From: Thermoanaerobaculia bacterium
GTDB lineage: Bacteria; Acidobacteriota; Thermoanaerobaculia; Multivoradales; SZUA-115
Assembly: GCA_046331405.1 (NCBI GenBank)
Contig: JAXLQX010000001.1
Coordinates: 576,471-640,470 of the forward strand
Length of the DNA stretch: 64,000 bases
Direction: 5' to 3'
Notes under the pieces: generated by a model
What the model was told of the DNA's origin: nothing
Databases searched by the model: none
The model's input: the letters and a program-made list of their open reading frames with translations, nothing else
Shown here: positions 32,394 to 64,000 of the stretch, one piece after another
How positions within the stretch are numbered: the stretch's first letter is position 1
Layout of the letters: each line of letters opens with the position of its first letter
Made by a program: the position numbers and the translations under genes

Positions 32394-32434
32394 GCTGGGC
32401 TCTTGGGGATGAAGGCAGAAGGGCGCGAGCGAGC

Positions 32435-33448
32435 GTGAGAGTCCTCGGTGCGAAGGACGTGGCGGCCTTGCTCAGGGGCCAGGAAGAGGCGGTCCTCGCG
32501 GCCGTGGAGCTTGCCTACCGGCGCCACGAAGAGGGCGCAACGGTGTTGCCGCATTCCGTTTTCGTGCGCCCTCCCGGCCAGAGCCTGAACCGCATCATCG
32601 CCCTCCCGGCCTGGGTCGGCGGAGAGCTCGGGATGGCCGGGATCAAGTGGATCTCGTCCTTCCCCGGCAATGTCGAGCGGGGCTTCAATCGTGCCTCGGC
32701 GGTGATCGTGCTCACCAGCACCGAGACAGGCCTGCCTCTCGCCCTGCTCGAGGGCTCGCTCGTCAGTGCCCATCGAACGGCGGCGAGCGCCGCGGCAGCC
32801 GCTCGGCTGCTCCATGCCCGGCGGCAGGTCGACCGCCTGGCGCTGGTCGGGGGTGGGGCGATCCAGCTCGAGATCCTGCGCTACTTGCGCCACGGCTTCC
32901 GCCTCGACGGCGAAGTGGTGCTCTTCGACAACGGCCCGGAAGGCGGGGCCCGCTTCGCGGCAGTGGTAGAACGGCTCTTCGGCTTGAGGGTCGGCCTGGC
33001 GAGCTCGGCCGCTCAGGCGCTCGCGGGGGCCGACGTGCTCAGCCTCGCCACCACCGCGGCCAAACCCCATCTCGACTCCCTCGAACGCCTCCGGCCGGGT
33101 GCCACGGTGCTCCATGTTTCGCTGCGCGACCTCGCTCCCGAGGTGATCCTCGGCAGCGACAACGTGGTCGATGATCGCGACCACGTGCTGCGGGCGGAGA
33201 CCTCGCTCCACCTCGCGGAGCAAGCGGTGGGGAATCGAGCCTTCATCCGCGCCAGCCTGGGCGAGTTGCTCCTGGGCCGGCAGCCGGTGCGACCCGAGCC
33301 CGAACGCCTCACCGTCTTCAGTCCCTTCGGCCTCGGAGTGCTCGATCTGGCCGTGGCGGACTGGGTCTACCGCTGCGCCGAGCAGGCAGGCCTCGGCCGC
33401 ACGGTGGAGGACTTCCAGCCCCGCCCCTGGTGGGAGGTCGAAGCCTGA
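32435..33448 (+). CDS. Ornithine cyclodeaminase/mu-crystallin family NAD-dependent enzyme (SbnB-like)
   Basis: OCD-family fold: Rossmann LALVGGGAIQ. Located next to a SbnA-like PLP enzyme gene. Confidence 0.6.
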   Translation: MRVLGAKDVAALLRGQEEAVLAAVELAYRRHEEGATVLPHSVFVRPPGQSLNRIIALPAWVGGELGMAGIKWISSFPGNVERGFNRASAVIVLTSTETGLPLALLEGSLVSAHRTAASAAAAARLLHARRQVDRLALVGGGAIQLEILRYLRHGFRLDGEVVLFDNGPEGGARFAAVVERLFGLRVGLASSAAQALAGADVLSLATTAAKPHLDSLERLRPGATVLHVSLRDLAPEVILGSDNVVDDRDHVLRAETSLHLAEQAVGNRAFIRASLGELLLGRQPVRPEPERLTVFSPFGLGVLDLAVADWVYRCAEQAGLGRTVEDFQPRPWWEVEA

Positions 33449-33467
33449 GGCCTTAGGGCGCGGTCGA

Positions 33468-34478
33468 TCAGGGCTGGGAGCCGAGCACGCTCGCCAGGAT
33501 GGCCTTCTGGATGTGCAGGCGATTTTCTGCCTGGTCGTAGCGGATCGACTGTGGGCCATCGACCACGCCAGCCGTGGCTTCGTCGCCGCGGATGAGCGGC
33601 ATGCAGTCCATGAACACCGCCCCCGGGGCGGCCCGCTCGAAATGCCGTTCGGAGACCCGCCAGGCCTCCCGCAGCGGCGCGCGCAAAGCGGCATCCTCCT
33701 CGGCCGTGCAGGAGAGCGCCTTCCAGCTCTTGGCGTAGATGGCGTCGGCACCTGCGGAGGCGGTGTCGAGGTCGTGGCAGAGCTCCAAGCTGCCCCCGGA
33801 GCGCTCGCTCTGCTCGCGGGCGAAGCGGAGGTAGTCCTCTTCAGGCTCGAAGCCCGGCGGGAACACCATCCGCAGCCGCATGCCCAGGATCGCGGCGGCT
33901 GCCAGCATGGAGTGGGTCACGCCCGGGGACTTCTGGCGCTTGGCCCAGGCCCAGCTGAAGACCACGGTACGCTGCCGGTAATCCGCACCGAAGCGTTCGC
34001 GCAGGGTGAGGATGTCGGCCAGCACCTGGCAGGGGTGCTCGCGATCGTCGAGGGCATTGATCACCGGCTTCGCCGCGTAGCGGCCGATCTCCTCGAGGCT
34101 GCGATAGCCCTTGCCGTACTGCGTCAGGTCGTAGAGGCGCACCACGATGCCGTCGAGCAGCCGGCCCATCACGGCGGCGGTGTCCTGCAGGGTCTCGTGG
34201 TTGCTCATCTGGAGGTCCGCAGGCGTGAGGTGCTCCGCGTGGGCCCCCAGCTGGCGCGCCGCTACCTGGAAGGAGATTCTCGTGCGCGTGGACGGCACGG
34301 TGAACAGCATGCCGAGCGTCTTGCCCGCGAGAAGCGCTTGGTTCACGGCGCCGCTCTTCATCTGCAAGGCGAGATCGATCAAAGCCTCGAGGGTCTCGCG
34401 ACTCTGATCGCGCAGGGTGAGGAAGCTGCGGCCCTCGAGAACGCTCAAGGCTGGGTGTGGGGGCCGGGTGGGATCCAT
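33468..34478 (-). CDS. OTC/ATC-family carbamoyltransferase, atypical subfamily
   Basis: Carbamoyl-phosphate motifs FTVPSTRTRISF (STRTR) and HPCQVLAD (HPxQ). The region equivalent to the ornithine-site HCLP motif reads FMDCMPLIRGDE. Confidence 0.7.
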   Translation of the reverse strand: MDPTRPPHPALSVLEGRSFLTLRDQSRETLEALIDLALQMKSGAVNQALLAGKTLGMLFTVPSTRTRISFQVAARQLGAHAEHLTPADLQMSNHETLQDTAAVMGRLLDGIVVRLYDLTQYGKGYRSLEEIGRYAAKPVINALDDREHPCQVLADILTLRERFGADYRQRTVVFSWAWAKRQKSPGVTHSMLAAAAILGMRLRMVFPPGFEPEEDYLRFAREQSERSGGSLELCHDLDTASAGADAIYAKSWKALSCTAEEDAALRAPLREAWRVSERHFERAAPGAVFMDCMPLIRGDEATAGVVDGPQSIRYDQAENRLHIQKAILASVLGSQP

Positions 34479-34516
34479 GCGTGGGGCTCCTTGGAAAGGC
34501 GTGGTGGGCCCGGCGG

Positions 34517-35575
34517 CTAGAAGCCGTTCTCGAAGGCGGCGTCTCCGAAATGCTCGCGCGTCCAGGAGTCCGAGAAGACGGTGTCCAGGTAGCGCTCGCC
34601 GCGATCGGGGAGGATGCCCACCACCTCGCTGCCGGGGGCGATCTCGGGCAACGCGCGCTCGATGGCGCTCACCACCGCGCCCGAGGAGGCACCGGCGAAG
34701 ATCGCCTCGTCGGCAAGCAGCCGGCGGCAGCCGCGGACGGCATCGAGATCGCTCATCAGGCTCACTTCATCCACCAGCTCGATCGGGCAGAGGGGCGGCC
34801 GGAGCGAAGCGCCCAGGCCGGGGAGCAATCGCTGGCAGCGCTGGTGATCGAAGATGAGGCTACCCACGGCATCCACCGCGACCACGCGAGTCGACAGCCC
34901 CAGTTCCCGCACCTTCTGCGCGCAACCGGCCAGCGTTCCGCAGGTGCTGGTCGGAATGAAAAGGTAATCGGGAGCGGGAACCACGCGCAGGATTTCCTCC
35001 ATGGTGGTCTCGTAGTGCTCGCGGGCGTTGTGCCGATTTCCATATTGATTGGGCCAGAAAGCGGCGGGATCAGCTGCCAGGATTTCCTGCACGCGGTGCA
35101 GTCGGGCCTGCAAGTACTCGCCGGTTTCCGGATCCGGCTCGCGGATCGCGTCCACCTCGGCCCCGTAGGCGCGGAGAATCGCGATGTTGGTGCGGCTGGC
35201 CTTGGGATCCACCACGCAGATCAGTCGCAAGCCGTGATAGCGACAGGCCTGGGCCAGGCCGATACCCATGTTGCCGGAGCTCGACTCCACGACCACCGAG
35301 CCGGGCTTGAGTTCTCCCCTCGCAAGTGCTTCTTCCACGATGCGCAGCGCTGGCCGGTCCTTGCTGCTGCCGCCCGGGTTGAGGCCCTCGATCTTCGCCA
35401 ACACCCGCGCCCTGGCGCCGGCGAAGCGCCTGCGGAGGTGAATCAGCGGTGTCTCGCCGACGGCTTCGAGAATGCTCCCGAGCGGCCTCAGGGCTTGCTT
35501 CGAAGGCGCCTTACGACGACTGGCCGGGCCACTTGGACACGGCGGCTGTCGAGGCGCATTCGAAAGTGTGCTCAT
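34517..35575 (-). CDS. Cysteine-synthase-fold PLP enzyme, SbnA-like
   Basis: PLP-lysine motif LNPGGSSKDRPALRIVEEA (SbnA-type GGSxKDRPA), glycine loop SSGNMGIGLA, and a CysK-like C-terminal half. Confidence 0.65.
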   Translation of the reverse strand: MSTLSNAPRQPPCPSGPASRRKAPSKQALRPLGSILEAVGETPLIHLRRRFAGARARVLAKIEGLNPGGSSKDRPALRIVEEALARGELKPGSVVVESSSGNMGIGLAQACRYHGLRLICVVDPKASRTNIAILRAYGAEVDAIREPDPETGEYLQARLHRVQEILAADPAAFWPNQYGNRHNAREHYETTMEEILRVVPAPDYLFIPTSTCGTLAGCAQKVRELGLSTRVVAVDAVGSLIFDHQRCQRLLPGLGASLRPPLCPIELVDEVSLMSDLDAVRGCRRLLADEAIFAGASSGAVVSAIERALPEIAPGSEVVGILPDRGERYLDTVFSDSWTREHFGDAAFENGF

Positions 35576-35960
35576 CAGTCATGCCAGGATGTTTTCTCCC
35601 CTAGAGTGCAGCGAGTCAATCAGTCGGGACAACGCAAGAAGCCGCTTCGGGCCGCGGCCTCGCTAGCGAATCGAGGAAATTTCCGTAGGTGTTCAGGTGT
35701 GGGCACAATTCTCTTCTAAACATTACTGTTACGGCTGGGCAAAGAGTCGAGTTCCAGCGCTGTGATCGTCTGCCGGCCGCGTGTCACGCCACCGGCTGAG
35801 GAGTGCATTCTTAGATGTAGAACGCGAGATCAGCTCGTCAAGACAAACCCGACTCTGGCTGGGTAGCCAGTTTGGAAGGGAAAAGGATGAACCGTCCTGG
35901 AACGCCCCCCCGCCAGAGTCGATTCGGCGCCTCGACCGATTCTGCCAGGGAGCTGCTTCC

Positions 35961-36680
35961 ATGGTATCGACCCTCCTCGCGCTGGCCCTGACCCTGCCGG
36001 CAACGGCTGCAGCCAACGACCTCACGGTGGACCAGATCCTCAGCCGGGCTGTCGAGGCCCGGGGTGGGGCAGCGCGCCTCAAGGAGCTGCGCTCGATCCG
36101 CACCCAGGGTGATTTTCTGGTTCAAGACGTCAAGCAGCCGTTCGTCCTCTACCGCCAGCGTCCCGACCATCTGCGCTCCGAGATCCAGACCCGCAAGGGC
36201 GCCGTCGTGCGGGTTTTCGCCGACGGCAAGGGCTGGGAGGTGAACCCCACCCAGGGCTCCACGGCGCCGCGGGTGCTGAGCGACGCCGAAGCGGCGGGTC
36301 TGCGCCGCCAAGCGGACTTCGATGGCCCTCTTCTCGATGCCAAAGCCAAGGGTCATCAGTGGCGGTTGGTGGGCCGCGAGAAGCTGGGCGACAAGGACGC
36401 CTATCACCTCGAGGTGAAGCTCGCGAGCGGCGACTCCGAGTCCTGGTGGGTGGATGCCGGGGACTTTCACGTGGTTAAGTCGGTTCAGAAGCAGACCGTG
36501 GCCGGCCAGCTCACCGACCTAGTCACTGAATACAGCGATTTTCGCGATGTCTCAGGAGTGAAGCTGCCGTTCCGTATCGACACCGAGCAAGTGGCACTCG
36601 GCCGCAAGACCACGCTCCTGGTGCAGTCGATCGCGGTCGATGCCGAGATGTCCGGGGATCTCTTCAGGATGCCCGGCTAA
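35961..36680 (+). CDS. Secreted LolA-like / outer-membrane-lipoprotein-sorting-like protein
   Basis: Start re-placed at ATG 35961, giving signal peptide MVSTLLALALTLPATAAA. Beta-rich, about 240 aa. Family assignment is tentative. Confidence 0.4.
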   Translation: MVSTLLALALTLPATAAANDLTVDQILSRAVEARGGAARLKELRSIRTQGDFLVQDVKQPFVLYRQRPDHLRSEIQTRKGAVVRVFADGKGWEVNPTQGSTAPRVLSDAEAAGLRRQADFDGPLLDAKAKGHQWRLVGREKLGDKDAYHLEVKLASGDSESWWVDAGDFHVVKSVQKQTVAGQLTDLVTEYSDFRDVSGVKLPFRIDTEQVALGRKTTLLVQSIAVDAEMSGDLFRMPG

Positions 36681-36711
36681 GCGTGGCCGTGCCCCATGTC
36701 GGAGCCATGCC

Positions 36712-39700
36712 ATGACCCGGGACCGACGCTCGCCGCAGAGCGATGATGTTGCCATCGTCGGGCTGAGTTGCCGGTTTCCCCACGCCGAAGGTCTCGAGCC
36801 CTTCTGGCGCCTTCTCGCAAGCGGCGGGGATGCGATCGAAGAGGTTCCGGCCGAGCGCTGGGACCTCGCTGCCGTCTACCGTCCGGGCAAGGCCGTTCCC
36901 GGCAAAGTCAACACTCGCTGGGGCGGCTTCCTGCAGGGTGTCGACCTCTTCGACGCCGGGTTCTTCGCGATCTCCCCCCGCGAAGCCGCGCGCATGGATC
37001 CGCAGCATCGCATGCTGCTGGAGGTCGCCTGGGAGGCCCTCGAGGACGCCGGCCTCCTGCCCGGGCAGCTGCGCGGAGCCCGCGGCGGTGTTTTTCTCGG
37101 CCAGTGCTACGAGGACTACCTCGACCTCGAGATTCGCGATCCGCGGCGGATCGATGTCTACGTCAACACCGGCGGGGCGCGCAGCGTCGCCGCCGGCCGC
37201 GTCTCCTACAGCTTGGACTGGCGAGGTCCCAGCGTGTCGATGGACACCGCCTGCTCCTCCTCGCTGGTGGCCCTCCACCAGGCCATCGTCGCCCTGCGCG
37301 AGGGCGAATGCGACATCGCTCTCGCCGGTGGCGTGAACCTGGTTCTCCAGCCGGACTTCAGCATCGGCTTCTCTCAGGCGGGGATGCTCGCCCCCGACGG
37401 CCGATGCAAGGCCTTCGACGCGCGCGCCGACGGCTTCGTGCGCAGCGATGGCGTGGCCCTGGTGGCGCTCAAGCGGCTGGCCGACGCCCAGGCCGACGGC
37501 GATCCTGTGCGGGCCGTGATCCTCGGCAGTGCCGTGACCAACGATGGCCAGTCGAGCGGGCTCTTGATGACTCCTGGCCGGGAAGGCCAGGAAGCCGTGC
37601 TGCGCGAGGCCTACCGCCGAGCCGGAGTCTCGCCGGGGGCGGTGCACTACATCGAGGCCCACGGCACGGGGACCAGCGTGGGAGACCCGATCGAGGCCGC
37701 GGCCCTCGGGGCGGTGATGGGCGAGGGCCGGCCGGCGGGAAAGCGCTGCCGCCTGGGCTCGGTGAAATCCAATATCGGCCACACCGAGGGCGCCGCGGGG
37801 ATGGCCGGCTTGATCAAAGTGGTGCTCGCCATGGAGCAGGGCCTGCTGCCGGCGAGCCTCCATTGCCACGAGCCCAATCCGCGGATCCCCTGGCAGGAGC
37901 TGCCCGTCGAGATGCAAACCGAATCCGGCCCCTGGCCCCTCGCCGGGGGAGAGCGGGCGCTCGCGGGAGTGAGCTCTTTCGGCATCTCGGGCACCAACGC
38001 CCACGTGGTGGTCGAGCAGGCCGCCGAGCCCATCCGGGGGCGGCCGGCGGAGGTCGACGGACCCGTGGTGCTGCCGCTCTCGGCGGCTTCGGCGGCGGCT
38101 CTCGCTCAACGGGCGCAGCAGCTGCTCGAAACCCTGGAGGCCAGGCCGCGGGACTTCCCGCTGGCAGACCTCGGCTACACCCTCGCCGTACGCCGCAGCC
38201 ACTTCGAGCACCGCCTGGCCGTGGTGGCGAACTCCACGGCGGAGGCCGCCGAGGGCCTGGCCGCCTTCCGGGCGGGAGAGAGCCGAGCCAACCTCGCCAC
38301 CGGGGCCGCCACCACCACCGAGCGTCCACGCGTGGCCTTCCTCTTTCCGGGCCAGGGCAGCCAGTGGCTGGCCATGGGCCGCCGCTTGGCCCAGCAGGAA
38401 CCCGCGTTCCGCGCCGCCCTCGAGAGCTGCGACGAGGCCATCGCCCGCCACGCCGGCTGGTCGGTTCTCGCCGAGCTCGAGGCCGGCGAGGCGACCTCGA
38501 GGCTGGAGGAAGTGGACGTCGTCCAGCCGCTGATCTTCGCCCTCCAGGTGAGCCTCGCCGCCCTGTGGCGCAGCTGGGGCGTGGAGCCGGACGCCGTGGT
38601 GGGCCAGAGCCTGGGCGAGGTGGCCGCCGCCCACGTGGCCGGCGCCCTCGACCTCGACGACGCGGCTCGGGTGATCTGCCGGCGCAGCAAGCTGGTCAAG
38701 ACCACCAGCGGCCGGGGCGGCATGGCGGCCGTCGAGCTCTCGCTCGAGGAAGCCCGCGAACGCATCGCCCACCGCGCGGACCGCGTCTCTGTGGCGGTGA
38801 GCAACGGCCCCCGCTCCACCGTGCTCTCGGGCGAAACCGAGGCCCTCGGGGAGATCCTGGCCGAGCTCGAGCGAGACGGCGTGTTCGGCCGCTTGATCAA
38901 GGTGGACTACGCCTCGCACAGCCCGCAGATGGACCCCCTGCGCGAGGCCCTGCTCGCCGAACTCGAGCCTGTCAGGCCGCGCCCCGGGAGCGTACCGATC
39001 TACTCGACGGTCAGCGCCGAAGTGGGCGACGGCGCCGACTTCGACTGCCACTACTGGGTGAGGAATCTGCGCGAGCCGGTGCTCTTCGCCCCCTGCCTCG
39101 AAAAGCTGCTGGACCACGGCCACACCGTCCTGCTCGAGGTGAGCGCCCATCCCATCGTGCTTTCGGCGCTGAAGACCGCCCTCCACCACTGGCAGCGCCG
39201 GGCCCTGTGCCTGCCCTCGCTGGTACGGGACGGCGATCGCGGCGCCCTGCTCGCCTCGCTCGGCGCGCTCTACTGCGAGGGCTATCCGGTCGCCTGGGCG
39301 AAGCTCTTTGCACCTGGCGGCCGTTGCCTTCGACTGCCGTCCTACCCCTGGCAGCGCGAGAGCTACTGGATCGACCCGGAAGGGCCCGGTAAGCCCCTCG
39401 AGCGCGGGAGCGCAGCGCCTTCGGGGGGCCACCCGCTGCTCGGTTGGCGGCTGGAGTCGGCACTGCATGCCGGCACCCGCTTCTGGCAGACCGAAATCGC
39501 TCTCGAGCGGCAGAGCTTCCTGGCCGACCACCGGGTGCAAGGCGCGGTAGTGCTGCCGGCCGCCGCCTACCTCGAAGCCGCCCTCGCGGCAGCAGAGGAT
39601 TGCCTGGGAGCGGAGGCCGCGGTGGAGCTCGCCGGCGTCGAGTTCGAGCAGGCGCTGTTCCTGGCCCCGGGCCAGCCTCGGCGCAGCCAGCTGGCCCTGA

Positions 39701-42700: not shown

Positions 42701-43157
42701 GAGCCGAGGAACCGGCGACGGGAGCGAGCGAAGGGCTCAGCGCCGCGAGCCTCGCGCGCTTGCCGGCCGCCGAGCGAGAGGCCCGACTGCGGGAGTACCT
42801 GCGCGAGCTGGTGGCCCGGGTGCTCGGCCTGCCTGCGGCACGCCTCGAGGACGACCGGCCGGTGAACCGCCTGGGTATGGACTCGCTGATGGCCGTGGAG
42901 ACCCGCAATCGCGTGGAGATGGACCTCGGGGTGAGCGTTCCCGTGGTGACCCTGCTCCAGGGGGCCACGCTGCGGGAGCTCACGGAGCGGATCCAGGCGG
43001 AGCTGGGCGCGAGCCCTGCCGGCTCCGCCGCTCCGCCGCCGGCCGGCCCCGGCGAACCCGGCCACGAGGTGGTTGCCGAGATCGACCTCGAGGCGCTCTC
43101 CGAGGGCCAGGTCGACTCGCTCTTACGAGACCTCCTGGAGAGCCAGGGCAGCGCTCC

Positions 43158-43161
<4 letters not shown>
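36712..43161 (+). CDS. Type I polyketide synthase, single fully reducing module KS-AT-DH-ER-KR-ACP
   Basis: KS: DTACSSSLVALHQA, EAHGTGT, NIGHTEGAAG. AT: GQSLGEVAAAHVAG with the YASH specificity motif (methylmalonyl-type). DH: HPLLGWRLESALHAGTRFWQTE. ER: LIHSATGGVGLAA. KR: YLVTGGLGGLG. ACP: LGMDSLMAV. Start at MTRDRRSPQSDDVAIVGLSCRFP. ATGA overlap with the next gene. Confidence 0.9.
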
Positions 43162-48866
<5,705 letters not shown>

Positions 48867-48872
48867 GCCGCC

Positions 48873-56600: not shown

Positions 56601-59600
56601 GCTCGCCCAGCTGCTGGCGGCGATCTGGGCGGAAGTCCTGGGCCGGGAAGAAGTGGGCGAGCACGAGGACTTCTTCGCCCTCGGCGGACATTCGCTGTTG
56701 GCGGTTCGGCTGGTCGCCCGGCTGCGGGCCACCGTGGCTCCCGGGGCCGAGCTGCGCACCCTGTTCGACCACCCCACTCCCGCGAGTTTCGCCCTGGCGC
56801 TGCCGGCGAGCTCTGGCGAAGTACAACCTCTGGCCCCGATTCCCCGCCTCGAGCGCGGCGGCTTGCTGCCTCTCTCTTCGGCCCAGCAGCGCCTGTGGTT
56901 CCAGGACCAGCTCGAGGGGGAGCTCTCGGCGCTCGCCTTGCCAGCGCCGTTGCGGCTCTCGGGGCCGCTCGACCCGCGCCGAATGTCGACGGCGCTGGGG
57001 GCCCTTGTGGCCCGCCATGAGCTGCTGCGCACCCGCTTCCCGGTCGAGGCCGGGCGAGTGTGGGCGGAGATCACCCCCGCCGGGCCCCTGGCCTTGCCGG
57101 AGGTGGACCTCTCGGGCCTGCCTGCGGCTCGGCGGCCTGCCGAGGGCTCCCGTCTCCTCGCCGTCGACCTGCGAAGGCGCTTCCCGCTCGCAAGCTCGCC
57201 CCCGCTGCGCTGCGCGCTGCTGCGCCTGTCGGCGGCCGAGCACTGGCTGCAGCTCACGCTTCATCACATCGCCGGTGATCTCGGCTCCCTCGCGGTGCTG
57301 CTCCGGGAGCTCTCGGTGCTTTACCGGCAAGGGCAGGAGGCGCTTGCCCCGCTCGAGCTTCAACATGTCGATTTCGCCGCCTGGCAGCGGGGCGTCCTGG
57401 CCGGGCCCGGGCGCGAGGCGGAGCTGGCCTGGTGGCGGAGCACCCTGGAAGACCTGCCGCCGAGCTTCGAGCTGCCGGCCGACCGGCCCCGCCTGCCCGG
57501 CCAGGAGCCGCGAGGCGCCCGGGCGTCCTTCGCGCTCGCTCCCGGGCTGGTGCAGGCGCTGAGGCGCCAGGGCCGAGCCCTGGCGCTCACTCCGTTCATG
57601 CAGTTGGCCACGGGCCTCGCGCTGCTGCTCGGCCGCCTCGGCCGCAGCCGGGATCTGGCCCTGGCGACGCCGGTCGCCGGCCGGGACCGGCCCGAGCTCG
57701 CGGAGATGATCGGCCCGTTGCTCAACACGGTGGCGATCCGGCTGAGCCTCGCAGCCAACCCCACGGTGGCCGAGGCGCTGGCCATCGTGCGCGCTCAGGT
57801 GCTGGGGGCCCTGGCCCACCAGGAGCTGCCCTTCGACGAAGTCGTGACTTCCCTCGGCCTTGCCCGAGGCGGCGGCTCGCCGCCCTGGCTGGCCGCCCTG
57901 CTCGCGGTGCAGAACCTCGCCCTGCCGGCCCTCGACTTCGGCGCGCTCGAGGCCGAGCCGCTCGAGGTGGAAAAGCAAGCCGTGCAGTTCGAGTTGGTGG
58001 CGTTCTTCGCCGAGCGCCAGGGCGGCCTGGCCGGCGGCTTCAACTACCGCAGCGATCTCTTCGACCGCACCACCATCGAGCGCTGGCGAGGTTGGCTCGA
58101 GCGCCTGCTCGAGGGGGTCGCGACCCGGCCGGAGGCGCGGGCCTGGGACCTGCCCTGGTGGAGCCCGGCCGAGCACCAGCAGCTGCTCTGCGAATGGAGC
58201 GAGAGCAGGCGACTGCCCGAGGCGGGCCCCGAGGAGGGGCCCTGGTGCCTCTTCGCCGCCGCCTGCCGGCGGGCCCCGGAACGAGTAGGGGTGGTTTTCG
58301 AGGGCGAACACTGGAGCTATGGGGCGCTCGCCGCCCGGGCCGCCGCCGGCGCCGCCGAGCTCGAGGCCTTCGGAGTGGGGCCGGAGCAGCTGGTGGCGAT
58401 CTGCCTGGAACGCTCGGTGGCGCTCGTGGTCGCCGTGCTCTCGGTGCTCGGGGCCGGGGCGGCCTACGTGCCGCTCGATCCCGCCTGGCCCCGGGAGCGG
58501 CTGGCGAGCCTGCTCACGGAGCTGGGCCATCCCTGGGTGCTGAGCGGTCCCCTCGAGCGGGAGCTCCTGCCGGCCAACGCCCGGGCGCTCGAGCCGGCCC
58601 GAGTGCCAGCTGAGCCTGTGCCGGCCCCGCTGCCCGACGCCCGGCAGCTGGCCTACTTGATCTACACCTCCGGCTCCACCGGCCGGCCCAAGGGCGTGAT
58701 GATCTCCCGCGGCAGCGCTGCCCACCTGGCCCGCTCCCAGGTGGTGGCCTTCGGCCTGGGCGAGGGCGAGCGGGTGCTGCAGTTCTCGGCGATCACCTTC
58801 GACGCTTCGGTTTCGGAGCTGCTCACGGCGTGGGCGGTGGCGGGAACTCTGGTCCTCGGTCGCCGCGAGCAGCTGGCGGATTCGGGGGAGCTCGCCGGGC
58901 TCGCCAGCCGCGAGCGGATCGACCTCGTGACGCTGCCGCCTTCGCTTCTGGCCCGGCTCGCTGCCGGCTCGTTGCCGGCGCAGACCACCCTGGTGGTGGC
59001 CGGCGAGGCCACTTCGGCCGAGTTGGTGGACCGCTGGGCCCCGGGGCGTCGAATGCTCAACGCCTACGGCCCGACCGAGTGCACCGTGGGCGCCACCGTG
59101 GGGCTCTGCGAGGTCGGCGCTGGCGCGCCGCCGGCCCTGGGCCGCCCCACCCGGGGTTACCGGCTGCACGTGGTGGACCCCGGGGGGCAGCTCACGCCCC
59201 CGGGAGCCCCGGGGGAGCTCTGGATCGGCGGCGAGGGAGTGGCCCGGGGCTATTGGCGCCGGCCCGGGGAAACGGCGGCGCGCTTCGTGCCCGACCCCTG
59301 GAGCGGCGAGCCGGGCGCTCGCCTCTACCGCACCGGTGACCTCGGGCGCCAGCTTGCCGATGGCCGCTTGCGCTATCTCGGGCGCATCGATGCCCAGCTC
59401 AAGGTGCACGGTGTGCGCATCGAGCCGGCCGAGATCGAAGCCGCGTTCCTGGCCCATGGGGCCGTGCGCGAGGCGGCCGTGCAGCTCGCCTGGCGCGGCG
59501 CCGAGCGGGTGCTCGTGGCCTATCTGGGGGTGGGGGCGAGTGGGGTGAGCGAAAGCGCGCTGCGCGCCCACCTGGCGGAGCGCCTGCCGCGCACTCTGAT

Positions 59601-62427
59601 GCCCGCGGCGCTGGTGCTGCTCGAGCGGCTGCCCCTCTCCTCTCACGGCAAGGTCGATCGGCGGGCTCTCGAAGAGCTGCCGGTCGAGGTCGCGGCTTCG
59701 AGCTCTGCGGGCCCGCCCCGCGACGCCCTGGAGAGACGCCTGGCCGAGTTGTGGCAGGACATTCTCGGCCGCGGGGCCGGCACGGTGGGCGTGGGCGACG
59801 ATTTCTTCGCCCTGGGCGGCAGCTCGATCGATGCGGCGATCCTGGTCAACCGCCTGCAGGAGGAGCTCGGCGAGCACGTCTACGTGGTGGCGCTGTTCGA
59901 CGCCCCCACCCTCGGAGATCTCGGCGTCTGGCTCAAGCGCCACTACCCGGCCGCCGTGGAGCGTCGCTTCGGGGTGAGCGGCGGGCAGTCGGCCCCCGAG
60001 GGCGCGCAGCGGGATGGCCGGCCGCTCGGCGCGGCGGATCTCGCCGCGCTGGCCGGCCGGGTGGAGCCCCCGGCGGCGGCCCGGAGAGCTCGCCAGCGCC
60101 GGCCGGCGATCTTCGTGCTCTCGCCGCCGCGTTCGGGCTCCACGCTGCTGCGCGTGCTGCTCGGCGGGCATTCGCAGCTGTTCGCGCCGCCCGAGCTGGA
60201 CCTGTTCTCCTTCGCCACCCTGGGCGAGCGCCGCCGGGCCTTCTCCGGGCGTTTCGCCTTCTGGCGCGAGGGCCTGATCCGCGCCGTCATGGAGCTTGCC
60301 GGAAGCGACGCCCCGGCCGCCGAGCGGCTGGTCGAGGGCTTCGAAGAGCGCGACGCCGAGGTTTCCGAGGTGCTCGGCTGGTTGCTCGACGCCTGCGCTC
60401 CTCGCCTGTTGGTGGACAAGACGCCGGCCTACGCCCTCCACCCCGCGATCCTCGAGCGCCTGGAAGACGAGGTGCCGGGCGCCCACTACATCCACCTGCT
60501 CCGCCACCCGCAGGCGGTGATCGCCTCCTTCGTCGAAGCCCATCTCGATCAGCTCTTCTTCCGCCCCGAGCACCCCTACAGCGGGCCCGAGCTGGCGGAG
60601 CTGGTGTGGCAGCTCAGCCAGCGCAACATCCTGGAATTCCAGCGCCGCGTGGCCCCGGAGCGCTGGCATCCGGTGCGCTTCGAAGAGCTGGTGGCGGCGC
60701 CGGCCGAGGTGATGGCGAGGCTCTGCGCGGGCCTCGGCCTCAAGCTCGAGCCGGCCATGCTCGAGCCCTACGGCGATGGGCGCGGCCGGATGACCGACGG
60801 CATCCATCCGCTGTCCAAGATGCTGGGCGACGTGAAGTTCCACCAGCACTCGGCGATCGACCCGGCGGCGGCCCACCGCTGGCAGCAACAGCAAGGCCTC
60901 CGGCCCCTCGCCCCCGGGACCGTGGCCCTGGCCGAGCGGCTCGGCTACCCGGCCCCCGAAGCGCCGCTGTCCTTCGCCCAGCAGCGCTTCTGGCTGGCCC
61001 ACCGGCTGGACGCCTCCGGCTACGCCTACAACATCCCGGCCGCCGTGGAGCTCGAGGGCGAGCTCGATGCCCGGGCCCTCGCCGACGCCCTCGGCGACCT
61101 CGTTGCTCGGCATCAGGTGCTGCGCAGCTTCTTCCCGGTGGTCGAGGGCAGGCCCGTGGCCCGCTTCCGGCTGCCGGCCGGAGAGCCCCTGCCAAGGCTG
61201 GATCTCGAGGGCCTGGGCGAGGGCGCCGCCGCCGAGGCCGCCCGGCTGGGCGCGCGGGAGGCGAAGCGGCCGTTCGCCCTCGGGACCGGGCCGGTGGTGC
61301 GGATGCGCTTGCTCCGCCTCGGGCCGGCCCGTCACCGCCTGCTCTTCACTGCCCACCACATCGCGAGCGACGCCTGGTCCTCGGCGATCGTGCTTGCCGA
61401 GCTCGACACCCTCTACTCGGCGCGGCTCGCCGGCCGCCGGGCCGAGCTGCCCGAGCTCGCCGTCCAGTACGCGGACTTCGCCCGCCACCAGCGCGAGGAG
61501 CCGCCGGCCGGGCGGCAAGCGGCACTCGCCTACTGGCAGCGTGAGCTGGCACCGCCCTGGCCGCGCCTCGCCCTACCGGTGGACCGGCCCGAGGCTGCGG
61601 CCCTCGCCACCGCCGGCGCTCGCCTCACCATTGCCGTGCCGCCGCCGGTCGCCACGCGGCTGGTTGCCCTCGCCCGCGAGGAGAGCGCCACGCCGTTCGC
61701 CGCCCTGCTCGCAGCCTTCGGCCTGGTACTCGGGCACCTCGGCGGGCAGACGGATCTGGTGGTGGGCACCAACTTCGCCGAGCGAGGCCGGCCGGAGCTC
61801 GAGGGGCTGATCGGCTGCTTCGTCAACCAGCTCGCGCTGCGCCTCTCGCTCGCCGGCGAGCCCAGCCTGCGCGAGCTGCTGCGCCGTGCCCGGCGCACGC
61901 TGGTGGAGGCCCAGCGCCACGGCGAGGTTCCCCTGGAGCAGGTGCTGGAGCAGCTCGGCCTGGGCCCCCGCGCCGGCCAGGGGCAAGGCGAGGAGATCTT
62001 CGAGGCCAAGTTCGAGCTGCTCAACGTGCCGCGCGAGCGGCCGCGGCTGGGCCCGCTCGAGGTGCATCCGCTGGTCGAAGACCGCGGTGTGGTGCGCTAC
62101 CTCCTCCACCTGCTGCTCGAGGTGGGCGACGACGGCGGATTCCACGGCCTCTTCCAATACGACGGCGGGCGCCTCGAGGCCGCCACGGCGCGCGAGTGGA
62201 GCTGCCTTTTCGTCGATGCCTGCCGGCTGCTCGCCGAGCGGCCGGAGCTCGCTTTCGCTGCCGCGAAGGCCGAGCTCGCCTCCGCGGCCGAGCTGCGGCA
62301 GCAGGAGTCGGGGCGATTGCAGCGCCAGGCCAACGCCCGGCGCCTCGGCCAGAGCCGGCGCCCTGCCGCCGTCGCCAACCTCAGCACCCCCCAGGAGCCT
62401 TTCGACGATGAGCGACCCAACGCCTGA
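53644..62427 (+). CDS. NRPS subunit 3: C-A-PCP-C-A-PCP-sulfotransferase-C
   Basis: C HHIAADRWS. A1 AYLIYTSGSTGRPKGVVV, YHTGDL. PCP FFALGGHSLLAVRL. C LHHIAGDLGS. A2 AYLIYTSGSTGRPKGVMI, NAYGPTECTV, YRTGDLG. PCP FFALGGSSIDAAIL. Sulfotransferase PAPS motifs IFVLSPPRSGSTLL (5'-PSB) and LLRHPQAVIAS (3'-PB RxxxxxxS). Terminal C HHIASDAWS. TTG start overlapping the NRPS2 stop. Confidence 0.85.
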   Translation: MSLEGASSLERRLAALTPPQRAALAERNPLSFAQERMWFLDQLFGGSAFYHGGAALCLHGELEVAALAAALSELARRHHVLRSVFPALDGVPAQLVLPAAAVALPVVDLAALAPLDRERAAAALAAHEVARPCRLDQGPVWRRLLLRLATREHRLIATLHHIAADRWSLAILARELGELYAARLAGRPAELPSLPVQYGDFARWQRRLPAEAFAGDLAYWRSQLAALPPPLELPVDHPRPARPGLRGRRHHHHLAAGLEGRLQSVARREGATPFMLVLAALAALLARWTGSQDVLLGSPLGAREREEFEPLIGLFLNTLPLRLRPGRGLSFRQLLAEAGQVALEAQDHAALPFEKIVEAVQPERQLDRNPLFQVLFAYQNVPRERLALGSLEVELAEVERQSALFDLSLSFEEEAEGLSLGVDYSRDLFDATTVARLARHLERLLTAALENPEERLEALPWLAAAEEHQLLREWSDTAVAGDPPSPFELFSLQVAARPEASAVACDGEVLSYGELHRRVRRLAAALEGQGVGPGSRLGLYLERSPEQLQALLAALCQRAAYVPLDPAFPAERLRFMAEDAGLAAILVAERAAAPPEFAGRLLALGELEAPAEGPGAAPGGDWPAYLIYTSGSTGRPKGVVVPASAVSNFLLSMAERPGLSACERLVAITTLSFDIAVLELLLPLVVGAQVVLARRATASDPLRLAGLLAEQAANALQATPATWRALLESGWQPPAGLALLCGGESLPLELAERLCQGESWLWNLYGPTETTVWSTLERWQRGEPSVAAGRPIANTGAFVLDRGGRPLPVGAPGELALGGRGVSWGYSGRPTATAERFRPDPFADRPGQRLYHTGDLVRRGPDGRLEWLGRLDHQVKLRGFRIELGEVEAALASHPGVAQAVALVIGPEPAALVGVVRPRPEQSPAGAALLAHLGQRLPGYMVPSQIVLVDPLPLTPNGKVDRRALGEQVATLRRGAAPEEGPSGSQLAQLLAAIWAEVLGREEVGEHEDFFALGGHSLLAVRLVARLRATVAPGAELRTLFDHPTPASFALALPASSGEVQPLAPIPRLERGGLLPLSSAQQRLWFQDQLEGELSALALPAPLRLSGPLDPRRMSTALGALVARHELLRTRFPVEAGRVWAEITPAGPLALPEVDLSGLPAARRPAEGSRLLAVDLRRRFPLASSPPLRCALLRLSAAEHWLQLTLHHIAGDLGSLAVLLRELSVLYRQGQEALAPLELQHVDFAAWQRGVLAGPGREAELAWWRSTLEDLPPSFELPADRPRLPGQEPRGARASFALAPGLVQALRRQGRALALTPFMQLATGLALLLGRLGRSRDLALATPVAGRDRPELAEMIGPLLNTVAIRLSLAANPTVAEALAIVRAQVLGALAHQELPFDEVVTSLGLARGGGSPPWLAALLAVQNLALPALDFGALEAEPLEVEKQAVQFELVAFFAERQGGLAGGFNYRSDLFDRTTIERWRGWLERLLEGVATRPEARAWDLPWWSPAEHQQLLCEWSESRRLPEAGPEEGPWCLFAAACRRAPERVGVVFEGEHWSYGALAARAAAGAAELEAFGVGPEQLVAICLERSVALVVAVLSVLGAGAAYVPLDPAWPRERLASLLTELGHPWVLSGPLERELLPANARALEPARVPAEPVPAPLPDARQLAYLIYTSGSTGRPKGVMISRGSAAHLARSQVVAFGLGEGERVLQFSAITFDASVSELLTAWAVAGTLVLGRREQLADSGELAGLASRERIDLVTLPPSLLARLAAGSLPAQTTLVVAGEATSAELVDRWAPGRRMLNAYGPTECTVGATVGLCEVGAGAPPALGRPTRGYRLHVVDPGGQLTPPGAPGELWIGGEGVARGYWRRPGETAARFVPDPWSGEPGARLYRTGDLGRQLADGRLRYLGRIDAQLKVHGVRIEPAEIEAAFLAHGAVREAAVQLAWRGAERVLVAYLGVGASGVSESALRAHLAERLPRTLMPAALVLLERLPLSSHGKVDRRALEELPVEVAASSSAGPPRDALERRLAELWQDILGRGAGTVGVGDDFFALGGSSIDAAILVNRLQEELGEHVYVVALFDAPTLGDLGVWLKRHYPAAVERRFGVSGGQSAPEGAQRDGRPLGAADLAALAGRVEPPAAARRARQRRPAIFVLSPPRSGSTLLRVLLGGHSQLFAPPELDLFSFATLGERRRAFSGRFAFWREGLIRAVMELAGSDAPAAERLVEGFEERDAEVSEVLGWLLDACAPRLLVDKTPAYALHPAILERLEDEVPGAHYIHLLRHPQAVIASFVEAHLDQLFFRPEHPYSGPELAELVWQLSQRNILEFQRRVAPERWHPVRFEELVAAPAEVMARLCAGLGLKLEPAMLEPYGDGRGRMTDGIHPLSKMLGDVKFHQHSAIDPAAAHRWQQQQGLRPLAPGTVALAERLGYPAPEAPLSFAQQRFWLAHRLDASGYAYNIPAAVELEGELDARALADALGDLVARHQVLRSFFPVVEGRPVARFRLPAGEPLPRLDLEGLGEGAAAEAARLGAREAKRPFALGTGPVVRMRLLRLGPARHRLLFTAHHIASDAWSSAIVLAELDTLYSARLAGRRAELPELAVQYADFARHQREEPPAGRQAALAYWQRELAPPWPRLALPVDRPEAAALATAGARLTIAVPPPVATRLVALAREESATPFAALLAAFGLVLGHLGGQTDLVVGTNFAERGRPELEGLIGCFVNQLALRLSLAGEPSLRELLRRARRTLVEAQRHGEVPLEQVLEQLGLGPRAGQGQGEEIFEAKFELLNVPRERPRLGPLEVHPLVEDRGVVRYLLHLLLEVGDDGGFHGLFQYDGGRLEAATAREWSCLFVDACRLLAERPELAFAAAKAELASAAELRQQESGRLQRQANARRLGQSRRPAAVANLSTPQEPFDDERPNA

Positions 62428-62527
62428 GCCCCGCGTGCCCGGAGTGGACCTGGTGACCTGGATCGCCGGGCCCCGGCGGATCCCCGTCGAGATGGGCCAG
62501 GCCGCCAGCGGGGAGCCCCGGCCGTGA
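62408..62527 (+). CDS. Possible 38-aa bridging ORF between NRPS3 and NRPS4 (hypothetical)
   Basis: ATG at 62408 overlaps the NRPS3 stop in the +1 frame. Encodes MSDPTPEPRVPGVDLVTWIAGPRRIPVEMGQAASGEPRP. Its TGA overlaps the GTG start of the next NRPS gene (CCGTGAGCC). Confidence 0.2.
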   Translation: MSDPTPEPRVPGVDLVTWIAGPRRIPVEMGQAASGEPRP

Positions 62528-64000
62528 GCCAGGCCGGCTTCCGCCTCTCGCCGGAGCAGCGGGCCGCCTGGGCGGCGGCCGAGCAGGGCCGGGCCCTGCC
62601 CTGGGTGGCCCGGGTGGAGTTCGCCGGCGAGCTCGAGCCGCAGGCCTGTCGCCGGGCCCTCTCGGCTCTCGGCAGTCGACTCGAGATCCTGCGCACCGGC
62701 TTCGACTTCGCCCCCGGCCTCACCGTGCCTCTGCAGTGGGTGAAGGAGGAGGCGCGACCGAAGCTCGCCTGGCTGGACCTCACCGCGCTCGCGGCGGGGG
62801 ACCGCGACCGTGCGGCGAGCGAGGTCGCCCGCGAGGCGGCTGCCGCCGGCCGGCCCTGGCAGCAGGGAGGGGTGGAGCTGCTGGTGGCCAAGGCCGGCCC
62901 GGCCGCCGGCTGGCTGCTCTGGAAGAGCTCGCCCCTGGTGGCGGGGCCACAGAGCCTGTGGTTGCTCGCCTCCGCCTGGGCGGAAGAGGTGGCTGGCTCG
63001 CCTGGAGCCGACACGCTCCAGTACGCCGACCTCGCCGAGTGGCAGAACAGTCTGCTCGAAGGTGAGGAAACCGCCCAGGAGCGGCTCTACTGGCGATCCT
63101 GGGCCGGGAGCTCCCGGCCAGAAGGAACCTGGGCGTCGCCGCCGGAGGGAGAGCGGCCGCCGCAGCCCGCCGTGGCTCGGCGCCGGCTGCCGGGCGAGGT
63201 GATCCACAGCCTGGCCGCGGCCGGCAACCTCGAGGGGGAGCTCGCGGCCTGCTGGTGGCTCCAGGCGGCGGCCTGGCAGGCCGAGGGCGAGCCGGCTCTG
63301 GGCCTGCTCGCGAACGGGCGCTCCTACGAGGATCTCGAACGCGCCGTGGGGCCTCTCGCCCGCCACCTGCCCCTGCGCCTGCCGGCGCCACAGGCGGCCG
63401 AGGGCTTCCGTGGCTGGGCCGGGAGGGTGGGCCAGGCGCTGGCAGCGGATCGCGAGTGGCAGGAGTACTGCCCTCTGTTTCCGGAGCGAGTGCCGTACCT
63501 CACGGCCTTCGAGCATCGAGCCGTGGGCGAGCGGTGGGCTCGAGGCGGCCTGGCGCTGCGCCTGCTGGGCTTCGAGAGGGTGGCCGGTGCACCCGGCGTG
63601 GCCCTGACTCTGGCCGTGGAGAGCAGCCCGGAAGGCGTCGAGGCCCGCCTGGCATTCGACCGCGCTCGGCTGGCGCAGCGTGAAGCCGAGGCCCTGCTCG
63701 AGCGTTGGGCGGAGCTCGTCGCACGGGTGGCGGCGCAGCCGGCGGCAACGGTGGCGAGCTTCGAGCGGCTGAGCCGGGCAGACCAGGCCTGGCTCGATAC
63801 CGGCTGGAACGGCGAGCAAGGCCTGCTGCCGGACTTTGACACCGTGCTCGAGCCGATTCTCCGGGAGGCGCGCCGGGCCAGCGAGCGGGTCGCCCTGGTG
63901 GGGGGCGAGGAGCATTGGTCCTGGGGCTACCTCGAAAGCTACTCGGCCGGCCTCGCCGGCCGCTTGCGCGCCCTGGGGGCCGGGCCGGACCGCCTGGTGG
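62524..64000 (+). CDS. NRPS subunit 4 (5' part): degenerate C-like domain, then the start of an A domain; continues beyond the window
   Basis: Not in the ORF track because no stop occurs in the window. GTG start VSQAGFRLSPEQRAAW...LEILRTGFDF. The C-motif position reads SSPLVAGPQSLWLL (no His). The window ends in RVALVGGEEHWSWGYLESYSAGLAGRLRALGAG (A-domain A1/A2 region). Confidence 0.7.
   Translation, partial: MSQAGFRLSPEQRAAWAAAEQGRALPWVARVEFAGELEPQACRRALSALGSRLEILRTGFDFAPGLTVPLQWVKEEARPKLAWLDLTALAAGDRDRAASEVAREAAAAGRPWQQGGVELLVAKAGPAAGWLLWKSSPLVAGPQSLWLLASAWAEEVAGSPGADTLQYADLAEWQNSLLEGEETAQERLYWRSWAGSSRPEGTWASPPEGERPPQPAVARRRLPGEVIHSLAAAGNLEGELAACWWLQAAAWQAEGEPALGLLANGRSYEDLERAVGPLARHLPLRLPAPQAAEGFRGWAGRVGQALAADREWQEYCPLFPERVPYLTAFEHRAVGERWARGGLALRLLGFERVAGAPGVALTLAVESSPEGVEARLAFDRARLAQREAEALLERWAELVARVAAQPAATVASFERLSRADQAWLDTGWNGEQGLLPDFDTVLEPILREARRASERVALVGGEEHWSWGYLESYSAGLAGRLRALGAGPDRLV

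Follow-up and report, generated by a model that had tools for sequence, protein, structure and literature searches.

Several described biosynthetic systems share components with the locus considered here, a predicted hybrid polyketide synthase (PKS) and nonribosomal peptide synthetase (NRPS) assembly line in a stretch of 64,000 nucleotides (the window) from an uncultured soil Thermoanaerobaculia bacterium of the Acidobacteriota (assembly GCA_046331405.1, contig JAXLQX010000001.1, positions 576,471 to 640,470 of the forward strand). Closest in layout are the NRPSs for the lipopeptide siderophores cupriachelin, taiwachelin and potashchelin, with which the comparison was by architecture and specificity codes only. 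There, as in the window, a TauD-type hydroxylase domain is fused after a terminal condensation (C) domain, an acyl tail is or would be attached, and the next protein consists of a His-less C-like domain, an adenylation (A) domain coded for Asp and a peptidyl carrier protein (PCP); the published potashchelin layout is fatty acyl-AMP ligase (FAAL)-acyl carrier protein (ACP)-C-TauD-C-A(Asp)-PCP (PMC7100376). The window differs from these siderophore systems in opening with a fully reducing PKS instead of a FAAL or starter C domain, in carrying a gene for a B12-dependent radical S-adenosylmethionine (rSAM) enzyme at the junction, an in-line sulfotransferase (ST) and a Cys module ahead of the Asp module, and in that no siderophore uptake genes were seen in it.

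Sulfotransferases that act in cis on an assembly line are represented by CurM and the olefin synthases (OLS), in which the order is ACP-ST-thioesterase (TE). The ST domain of the window is homologous to these, has intact motifs and likewise stands directly after a carrier domain, but what comes next is a C domain with further modules instead of a TE, and it stands behind a Tyr-coded module instead of a beta-hydroxyacyl-ACP. OciA of Planktothrix (cyanopeptolin/oscillapeptin), compared here by its published layout, also has an in-line ST inside an NRPS; its substrate is a glyceryl starter, whereas in the window an A domain would load the substrate, an internal residue. The sulfazecin system (SulG/SulH, SulN, SulM) shares with the window an SbnA/SbnB-type supply of L-2,3-diaminopropionate (Dap) and the sulfonation, dependent on 3'-phosphoadenosine 5'-phosphosulfate (PAPS), of a carrier-tethered intermediate; SulN acts in trans, on Dap, in the last module before a beta-lactam-forming TE, whereas the window ST lies in cis in a Tyr-coded, mid-line module.

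Two further comparisons concern enzymes around the assembly line. A pyridoxal phosphate (PLP) enzyme, an OCD-like dehydrogenase and a transcarbamylase of the ornithine transcarbamylase (OTCase) fold lie beside the NRPS genes, as in the VioB/VioK/VioL and zwittermicin routes; the window transcarbamylase is likened to VioL by this gene trio, and its use of Dap is presumed. The rSAM enzyme resembles the phosphinothricin P-methyltransferases PhpK and BcpD in scoring above the PhpK cut-off and in having a B12-binding domain and a CxxxCxxC core, but it differs from them in that the window has no phosphonate genes. The locus joins a known device (C-TauD, interface domain and Asp module) to two recurrent and uncharacterised ones, namely the NRPS module bearing an ST and the rSAM gene at an interface junction, and adds to them a Dap/ureido supply.

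Organization of the assembly line

We judge it probable, on balance, that the region is a single co-linear hybrid PKS-NRPS biosynthetic gene cluster (BGC). Its domain string, intact catalytic motifs and family assignments come directly from the tools applied: in DNA of ~70% G+C, real genes were delimited by codon-position G+C and stop-to-stop open reading frames (ORFs), domains by Pfam and families by NCBIfam. A first-pass annotation of the sequence had read a string from ketosynthase (KS)-acyltransferase (AT, with a YASH motif)-dehydratase (DH)-enoylreductase (ER)-ketoreductase (KR)-ACP to a terminal C*-A, in which C* marked degenerate C domains. Every listed domain was recovered by searches with hidden Markov models (HMMs), among them the ST, TauD and rSAM domains, whose failure to appear had been named beforehand as a reason to abandon the model. 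The genes are also contiguous and coupled, as had been described: the junctions within the line are ATGA or TTGA overlaps, save that 6 nt separate NRPS1 from the rSAM gene and that 96 nt, following an in-frame stop, separate NRPS3 from the last gene (NRPS4). The left edge of the cluster lies near 29.9 kb, with gap-pgk-tpi genes at 24517-27589 to its left. On the right the A domain of NRPS4 is cut by the end of the window and no TE occurs within the window, which bears out the statement that the line runs past base 64000.

Attempts to follow the line farther used exact and inexact searches. Exact look-ups with NRPS3 gave no match, those with the rSAM gene matched only contigs of 6-8 kb that end inside NRPS2 or NRPS3, and an exact 39-mer from the window end was unmatched in metagenome contigs. 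A close full-length relative of NRPS4 was absent from word-indexed and exhaustive-representative protein searches, which yielded only an 88-aa fragment of 96% identity. A match to a characterised cluster, the other outcome named beforehand as telling against the model, was not found either: the closest relatives of NRPS4 in reference genomes are at most 33% identical and lie in loci that lack both ST and rSAM, and the closest syntenic cluster found, the metagenomic L168, has an rSAM homologue of 63% identity and NRPSs of 38-43% identity, and is without an ST. No promoter or terminator signal above chance emerged from a scan of 29400-37000.

The PKS has the features of a modular, cis-AT, type I, fully reducing module, with intact motifs in the KS (DTACSS, HGTGT, NIGH), DH (HPLLG, DAGFQ), ER (LIHSATGGVG), KR (YSAAN) and ACP (GMDSL). 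The AT specificity motif is YASH (PKS residue 757), a methylmalonyl signature (PMC7327777). The AT nucleophile motif is GQSLG where GHSxG is usual (38600-38615; PKS residues 655-659), in a domain that otherwise looks normal.

NRPS1 to NRPS3 have the make-up of NRPS elongation modules. Five C domains carry HHxxxD, including HHIAAD (residue 162) and HHLVADG (residue 1242) in NRPS1 and HHIASDA in the terminal C domain of NRPS3; the four complete A domains have motifs A3, A7 and A10 and full 10-residue codes, and the PCP motifs are GGHSL or GGSSI. The extraction of Stachelhaus codes, proposed in the first-pass annotation as a check, was run by alignment to the GrsA A domain and gave DLYNMSLIWK for A1 (NRPS1), DLTKVGHVGK for A2 (NRPS2), and DILQLGLVWK and DASTVAAVGK for A3 and A4 (NRPS3). 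We take these to be Cys-, Asp-, Gly- and Tyr-like, respectively, each being identical at 9 of 10 positions to the known code. The same pipeline yields recognisable textbook-type codes in ~160 loci. The first 90 residues of A5 in NRPS4 gave no signal of specificity.

The aspartate junction and its tailoring enzymes

The two domains marked C* do lack HHxxxD, as the first-pass annotation had it, and to judge from their sequences they are His-less interface domains, at which tailoring enzymes dock, rather than degenerate C domains. That of NRPS2 matches Condensation weakly (E = 4e-24) and has SAPALGCDAES at the HHxxxDG position; that of NRPS4 matches more weakly still (E = 6e-14) and has SSPLVAGPQS there, and its N-terminus (VSQAGFRLSPEQR) parallels that of NRPS2. 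In NRPS2 the domain is of the C fold, heads the protein that follows a C-TauD protein, and has as its partner an A domain with an Asp code, Asp or His being the expected choices. Its second-best match in the PDB is the teicoplanin module-7 chain 4tx2, which we take to be an X domain, a C-like recruiter of P450s; the sole PDB match of the NRPS4 domain is 8z0q, a 'special condensation domain in NRPS'. Reitz et al. are said to have described, in 2019, an integrated beta-hydroxylase class, IBH_Asp, together with the interface (I) domain. Interface domains are modelled along with siderophore beta-hydroxylases in antiSMASH 8 (PMC12230676).

When 185,579 reference genomes were scanned with the NRPS4 fragment, 80 loci of 22-33% identity were obtained, in Cyanobacteria, Acidobacteriota, Binatia and Chloroflexota. 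The related domain stands right after C-TauD in about 55 of the 80, and after a bare terminal C domain in a minority. These domains share PALCAD in place of HHxxxDG, and the codes read from the A domains behind them are mostly Asp or Asn, with a few His-like. The TauD domain of NRPS1 has the HNE facial-triad motif (residue 1678), matches 1y0z best in the PDB (E = 6e-37), and is 44-50% identical to the TauD domains of loci with the arrangement C-TauD / I-A(Asp), in which a slash marks the boundary between proteins. Because of this arrangement in the relatives, NRPS1-TauD and the I-A(Asp)-PCP of NRPS2 are read together as a beta-hydroxy-Asp module, and the Asp of the next protein is most likely the target of the TauD domain. 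NRPS4, which also opens with an interface domain, is probably a second module that is tailored in trans.

A conserved cluster, PKS-C / I-A-PCP-C-A, is shared by loci in metagenome-assembled genomes of Binatia or 'delta proteobacterium' (L009-L013, L016, L018, L021-L023, L036, L038, L057 and L083), with mostly DARHMGVIDK as the first code, a DVENVGAITK-like second code and a KS ~60% identical to that of the window.

The same junction raises the question of whether the product is a beta-hydroxy-aspartate metallophore, that is, a siderophore, instead of an antibiotic-type lipopeptide, an outcome that would be compatible with the biosynthetic model and to which we assign a lesser though appreciable chance. 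The arrangement C-TauD / interface-A(Asp) is a signature by which NRP metallophores are called (PMC12971057; PMC7100376), although the authors of the rule also report beta-hydroxy-Asp in lipopeptides that are not metallophores (PMC12971057). The interface module of NRPS4 suggests a second tailored, chelating residue, and amphiphilic siderophores typically bear an acyl tail; yet among the Pfam-scanned ORFs of the window there is no gene for a TonB-dependent receptor or a periplasmic binding protein, nor a hydroxamate or catechol gene.

The rSAM gene lies between NRPS1 and NRPS2. Its product scores 625.5 bits against TIGR04479 (PhpK family P-methyltransferase; cut-off 600), has CAFKCSFC as its CxxxCxxC core (residue 256), and is identical to MFN7960158.1, annotated as PhpK family [Thermoanaerobaculia bacterium]. 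Homologues are abundant, at least 3000 proteins at E <= 1e-30 among 8000 candidates scored; the best 120 are 60-66% identical, and those with organism names are mostly from Acidobacteriota. Membership of the PhpK family by HMM is not accompanied by the phosphonate (phosphoenolpyruvate mutase) pathway that a phosphinate substrate would call for: no phosphonate genes occur among the scanned ORFs of the window or the called genes of five related NRPS/PKS loci. Because phosphonate genes are missing and the five contexts read are all NRPS clusters, the substrate is almost certainly a carbon atom and not phosphorus.

Which carbon is suggested by the neighbours of the gene. In L164, a PKS is followed by an NRPS that combines a Cys-like code with an Ox-type domain of the nitroreductase family, and then come C-TauD / rSAM / Ala racemase / I-A(Asp)-PCP. 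L168 reads PKS-C-TauD / I-A-PCP-C-TauD / rSAM / I-A(Asp)-PCP / C-A(Gly-like)-PCP-C-A-PCP-C. In L165 and L166, C and rSAM precede a protein made up of a C-like domain, an Asn-like A domain and a PCP, the C-like domain being unalignable at the HHxxxD position; in L167 the gene follows an Asn module at the end of the cluster, and in L169 it precedes an I-like-PCP protein. The rSAM homologues upstream of the interface-A or C-like-A genes of L164, L165 and L168 are 62-66% identical to that of the window. Common to these contexts is an interface domain that leads into an Asp or Asn module, and from this adjacency of genes we suppose that the rSAM enzyme probably docks at the interface domain and adds a methyl group to a carbon of the tethered Asp, in the simplest case C-beta.

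The enzyme might instead methylate Cys, the ring or beta-carbon of Tyr or the acyl chain, or carry out non-methylating radical chemistry, its position being a matter of operon history; we consider this somewhat unlikely. The chemistry of class B rSAM enzymes is varied, the name of the NCBIfam family refers to P-methylation, and the gene stands at a cluster end in L167 and before a module lacking an A domain in L169, while L164 pairs it with a Cys-like module bearing the Ox-type domain. Methylation of thiazoline rings by rSAM enzymes is known from watasemycin. On the other hand, 5 of 6 contexts have nothing in common except an A domain coded for Asp or Asn, the gene occupies the junction between C(-TauD) and interface-A in the window, L164 and L168, and L165 has in addition a second rSAM fused to a C-like domain. 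Methylation of the tethered Asp therefore remains the reading that we prefer.

That second rSAM of L165 (18905-21677) is the more distant of the two; a single ORF encodes it together with a weakly matching Condensation (C-like) domain, apparently as a gene fusion that joins an rSAM enzyme with a domain of this kind. In L169, the gene after the rSAM (from 3255) encodes an interface-like domain (VPALVSD) and a PCP, a module without an A domain that needs loading in trans.

The in-line sulfotransferase

The ST domain of NRPS3 is a full-length homologue of the ST domains of CurM (4gbm, E = 8e-68) and an olefin synthase (4gox, E = 2e-59). It keeps the motifs PRSGSTLL, PPEL, DKTP and RHP, which we take to be the PAPS-binding loops, with the Glu of PPEL as the presumed catalytic residue. 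In sequence it is of the CurM type; in context it is not, since the beta-hydroxyacyl-ACP and the TE that eliminates sulfate and CO2 are replaced by A(Tyr-like)-PCP upstream and a C domain downstream. Protein searches with the domain returned many PCP-ST, ST-C and ST-TE fragments, several of them from Thermoanaerobaculia, and a metagenome scan with an alignment of PCP-ST-C returned at least 526 relatives with that arrangement. Of these 78 loci were kept; an ST-C succession occurs in all 78, as might be expected of a query that itself covers the start of the C domain, and the usual layout is C-A-PCP-ST-C-A.

The codes of the A domains on either side of the ST differ in kind. Upstream (n=74) they are Thr in 28, Ser in 22, Tyr in 4, Dap in 3 and other in 17; downstream (n=69) they are Thr in 8, Ser in 3, Tyr in 2, Dap in 1 and other in 55, so that codes for a residue bearing a side-chain nucleophile account for 57/74 upstream positions and 14/69 downstream ones (Fisher p = 6.7e-12). 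Published sulfazecin and Agrobacterium codes (PMC11298585 Table S3) served to recognise the Dap code. Subgroups of the ST follow the upstream code (Thr 22/28, Ser 17/22, FkbH 5/5). The FkbH class comes from five loci in which no A domain precedes the ST, two of which (L128, 6024-9600; L150, 5202-9600) were examined and have FkbH-PCP-ST-C starter modules, L150 with an FkbM methyltransferase as well. This is the layout of cyanopeptolin synthetase OciA, which combines glyceric-acid loading and ST domains (PMC2533009). From these regularities it appears most likely that the ST would sulfonate the side-chain nucleophile of the residue tethered to its own module, here Tyr, to give O-sulfotyrosine. 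Neither a characterised cluster matching this one nor a characterised in-line ST belonging to an amino-acid module turned up in the searchable literature, and the characterised natural-product STs listed in 2024 are CurM-ST and trans-acting enzymes only.

A second fate of the sulfate, modelled on curacin, would be that it is placed on a beta-hydroxyl, for example that of beta-hydroxy-Tyr, as a leaving group, and is then eliminated or displaced to give a dehydro-amino acid or ring and an unsulfated product. The closest solved relatives, CurM and OLS, are both 'activating' STs. The family occurs mostly behind Ser or Thr modules, where an O-sulfate on the thioester-bound residue would be poised for beta-elimination, and the common targets (Ser, Thr, Dap, C3 of glycerate, the CurM substrate) all have a nucleophile at C-beta; the window ST, moreover, groups loosely with STs of modules without a side-chain hydroxyl. 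Against this, A4 has a Tyr-type code with no hydroxylase placed at its module, the TauD domain is located where Asp-hydroxylating systems have it, at the Asp junction, and the C domains after an ST form no distinct clade, that of the window being an ordinary HHxxxD C domain. In addition, the FkbH-PCP-ST layout matches that published for OciA, and a 2023 review of dehydro-amino-acid biosynthesis does not mention a route through sulfation. The product of OciA keeps its sulfate. We therefore think elimination unlikely in the window and retain O-sulfotyrosine as the predicted outcome.

Two groupings that were looked for among these domains did not appear. The window ST does not group with Tyr-associated STs and is about equally distant from all classes, and the post-ST C domains do not make up a special (dehydrating) clade, showing no more than a weak neighbour effect and ~2% higher identity.

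Other members of the family have features of their own. In L095, L134 and L161 the Dap code DIWE(I/M)TADDK stands directly upstream of the in-line ST (the A domain ends at ~8000 and the ST lies at ~8300), and these modules look like a cis version of the SulN step of sulfazecin. NRPSs with two ST-containing modules are found in L105, L106, L143, L152 and L084, the last with two Ser-coded A-PCP-ST-C units, the second at the extreme end of the cluster. L116, L129, L131, L140, L141 and L162 belong to one BGC family, in which the ST follows a Val/Ile-like code (DAFFxGVTFK) and a Gln-coded module usually comes next; all six STs have Asp after PPE(L/M), like the window ST.

Upstream genes and the predicted product

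The coordinates of the assembly line and of the genes upstream of it are collected in Table 1.

Table 1. Genes and domains of the predicted cluster, in order along the window
Feature	Position	Strand	Basis or remark
ADOP-family duplicated MacB/FtsX permease, candidate exporter	29901-32393	+	TIGR03434, 862 bits (cut-off 622)
SbnB-family dehydrogenase, second step of Dap synthesis	32435-33448	+	TIGR03944 equivalog, 386 bits (cut-off 327); OCD_Mu_crystall, E = 5e-39
Atypical transcarbamylase, candidate Dap carbamoyltransferase (to beta-ureidoalanine)	33468-34478	-	OTCace_N and OTCace match
SbnA-family PLP enzyme, first step of Dap synthesis	34517-35575	-	TIGR03945 equivalog, 407 bits (cut-off 350); PALP, E = 2.5e-61
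LolA-like secreted protein	35781-36680	+	Weak LolA_like match, E = 3.7e-5, below cut-off; G+C at third codon positions (GC3) 0.78
PKS: KS-AT-DH-ER-KR-ACP	36640-43161	+	Pfam; alternative start 36712
NRPS1: C-A-PCP-C-TauD	43158-48866	+	Pfam
TauD-type Fe/2-oxoglutarate hydroxylase domain, fused after terminal C of NRPS1	47934-48815	+	PF02668, E = 6e-45
rSAM: B12-binding and Radical_SAM	48873-50516	+	Pfam
NRPS2: weak Condensation-like (interface) domain-A-PCP	50513-53647	+	Pfam
NRPS3: C-A-PCP-C-A-PCP-Sulfotransfer_3-C	53644-62427	+	Pfam
PAPS-type ST domain, CurM ST family (in NRPS3)	60103-60963	+	Sulfotransfer_3, E = 9e-29
NRPS4 (partial): weak Condensation-like (interface) domain and start of A domain	62524-64000	+	Runs off the window

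The SbnA/SbnB pair, the atypical transcarbamylase and the ADOP permease that the first-pass annotation had placed upstream of the line are all borne out in identity by NCBIfam and Pfam, although the ADOP gene lies outside the range 32435-64000 to which it was assigned, and the strand given for the SbnA and transcarbamylase genes was wrong, minus being correct for both. Two plus-strand ORFs there, 33171-34520 and 34457-35719, are antisense shadows of these two genes and have no Pfam match. The LolA-like gene just before the PKS, absent from that annotation, encodes a protein with an internal signal-peptide-like stretch (MVSTLLALALTLPATAAA). The permease has two Pfam matches each to MacB_PCD and FtsX, and ADOP genes also lie beside the related NRPS loci L094, L144, L145 and L167.

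Both members of the SbnA/SbnB pair score above their equivalog cut-offs; the two genes are ~1 kb apart with the transcarbamylase gene between them, and the SbnA gene is 41 nt upstream of the latter on the same strand. The transcarbamylase is not an ornithine carbamoyltransferase by either score or motif. At 260-270 bits it falls below all NCBIfam OTCase cut-offs (281-306), and in an alignment to 1pvv it keeps the carbamoyl-phosphate motifs STRTR and HPCQ, whereas the ornithine motifs are replaced (DxxxSMG by KSWKALS and HCLP by DCMP). HCLP is an ornithine-binding motif of OTCase. The other, DxxxSMG, is defined as such in the literature, and the zwittermicin and viomycin clusters encode known Dap transcarbamylases, which form beta-ureidoalanine (PMC4581275). 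The loss of the ornithine motifs and the adjacency to SbnA/SbnB suggest that the window enzyme probably carbamoylates Dap to beta-ureidoalanine. SbnA, SbnB and OTC-like genes also lie beside interface-type NRPSs of other Acidobacteriota (L070 and L071; also L033 and L082), where the OTC-like proteins are only ~30% identical to that of the window.

A very improbable alternative is that this Dap enters a terminal module and is N-sulfonated and closed to a ring by a special TE, as in sulfazecin, to give a lipopeptide monobactam: SbnA/SbnB homologues and an ST on a carrier-bound substrate are hallmarks of sulfazecin (PMC11298585) and three metagenomic PCP-ST-C loci do have the published Dap code DIWE(I/M)TADDK directly before the ST, but in the window the ST sits in a Tyr-coded module followed by a C domain and more modules instead of a TE, the four readable A domains have no Dap code (DVWEMNADDK-like), and the adjacent transcarbamylase suggests a carbamoylated Dap beta-amine, which would block ring closure.

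Farther to the left are genes with less evident connections to the cluster. A second B12 radical SAM gene (27617-29644, minus strand; TIGR03975, 'RiPP maturation radical SAM C-methyltransferase', 518 bits) lies just upstream of gap-pgk-tpi in the same direction and is divergent from the ADOP permease gene; the 250-nt gap beside it holds no convincing precursor ORF. A FAAL-like adenylating enzyme (3651-6509, minus strand; AMP-binding domain and DIP2-like C-terminus), adjoining a major facilitator superfamily (MFS) transporter, is encoded 30 kb from the PKS with housekeeping genes between, and could supply the starter acyl group. Genes for an extracytoplasmic function (ECF) sigma factor and then a Ser/Thr kinase with TPR repeats (9309-12608, plus strand), and for large secreted proteins that contain BNR, PKD and Calx-beta domains (6861-9788 and 15812-21675), appear unrelated to the cluster.

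With O-sulfotyrosine and methylation at Asp as the preferred outcomes, the following pathway can be proposed. The KS would accept a fatty-acyl starter, the YASH-type AT would add methylmalonate, and the DH, ER and KR would reduce the product fully to a 2-methyl-branched saturated acyl-ACP, which NRPS1 would condense with Cys. The terminal C domain of NRPS1 would join the chain to Asp on NRPS2, whose interface domain would dock the fused TauD domain onto Asp-S-PCP for beta-hydroxylation and probably also the PhpK-family B12 rSAM enzyme for C-methylation, most simply at C-beta. NRPS3 would add Gly and then a Tyr-like residue, which the CurM-type ST after the PCP of that module would sulfate with PAPS, most likely to O-sulfotyrosine, before the ordinary C domain hands the chain to NRPS4. 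Because NRPS4 begins with an interface domain, tailoring in trans is probable for the fifth residue as well. SbnA and SbnB would make L-Dap, and the OTCase-like enzyme would probably convert it to beta-ureidoalanine; because none of A1-A4 has a Dap code, this residue must enter the chain beyond base 64000. The ADOP permease, perhaps with the LolA-like protein, would export the product, of which the part predicted from the window is probably 2-methylacyl-Cys-(3-OH, possibly 3-Me)Asp-Gly-Tyr(SO3)-X. The lipopeptide foreseen in the first-pass annotation, beta-hydroxylated, sulfated, C-methylated and with a diamino or ureido acid, fits this evidence as a prediction.

A number of observations count against the reconstruction. 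No loading module is visible before a PKS that opens with a KS, and the end of the assembly line, with its release domain and later modules, lies beyond base 64000; the missing Dap-coded A domain belongs here as well. The GrsA reference sequence used for the codes was entered by hand, although its numbering reproduces DAWTIAAICK, and A4 deviates from the Tyr code at position 331. As for the ST, 17/74 modules (23%) lack a code for a side-chain nucleophile, so that the own-residue rule is not universal; the window ST stands at ~52% from Ser-, Thr-, Tyr- and Dap-associated STs alike; and the residue after its PPEL is Asp, where most NRPS-type STs have Glu and CurM has His, Asp being found otherwise only in modules with codes other than Ser, Thr, Tyr or Dap. 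The substrate of the rSAM enzyme is assigned from gene adjacency in six contexts only, and we know of no precedent for C-methylation of Asp by the PhpK family.

More broadly, and with considerable doubt, it might be supposed that the interface domain is a general docking platform for TauD and rSAM enzymes on one Asp-S-PCP, leading to 3-hydroxy-3-methyl- or 3-methyl-Asp, and that PCP-ST-C 'sulfonation modules', which number in the hundreds in soil metagenomes, are a new class of in-line domain for tethered Ser, Thr, Tyr or Dap, the sulfate being in some lineages perhaps a cryptic leaving group on the way to dehydro-amino acids or rings. To our knowledge, a 3-hydroxy-3-methyl-aspartate (or 3-methyl-Asp) building block has not been reported from any natural product.

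The cluster exemplifies an NRPS module bearing a PAPS sulfotransferase and a B12 rSAM enzyme at an interface junction beside an Asp/Asn module. If the rule that an ST sulfonates the residue of its own module holds, sulfated peptides would be predictable straight from sequence by genome-mining tools, and the pairing with rSAM, if true, would extend the idea of recruitment by X domains and interface domains to radical SAM enzymes. We know of no natural product from Thermoanaerobaculia. As a bioinformatic prediction on a truncated cluster, the locus offers a lead for enzymology and for the discovery of sulfated lipopeptides, and any compound made by it would be new chemistry from an uncultured lineage.

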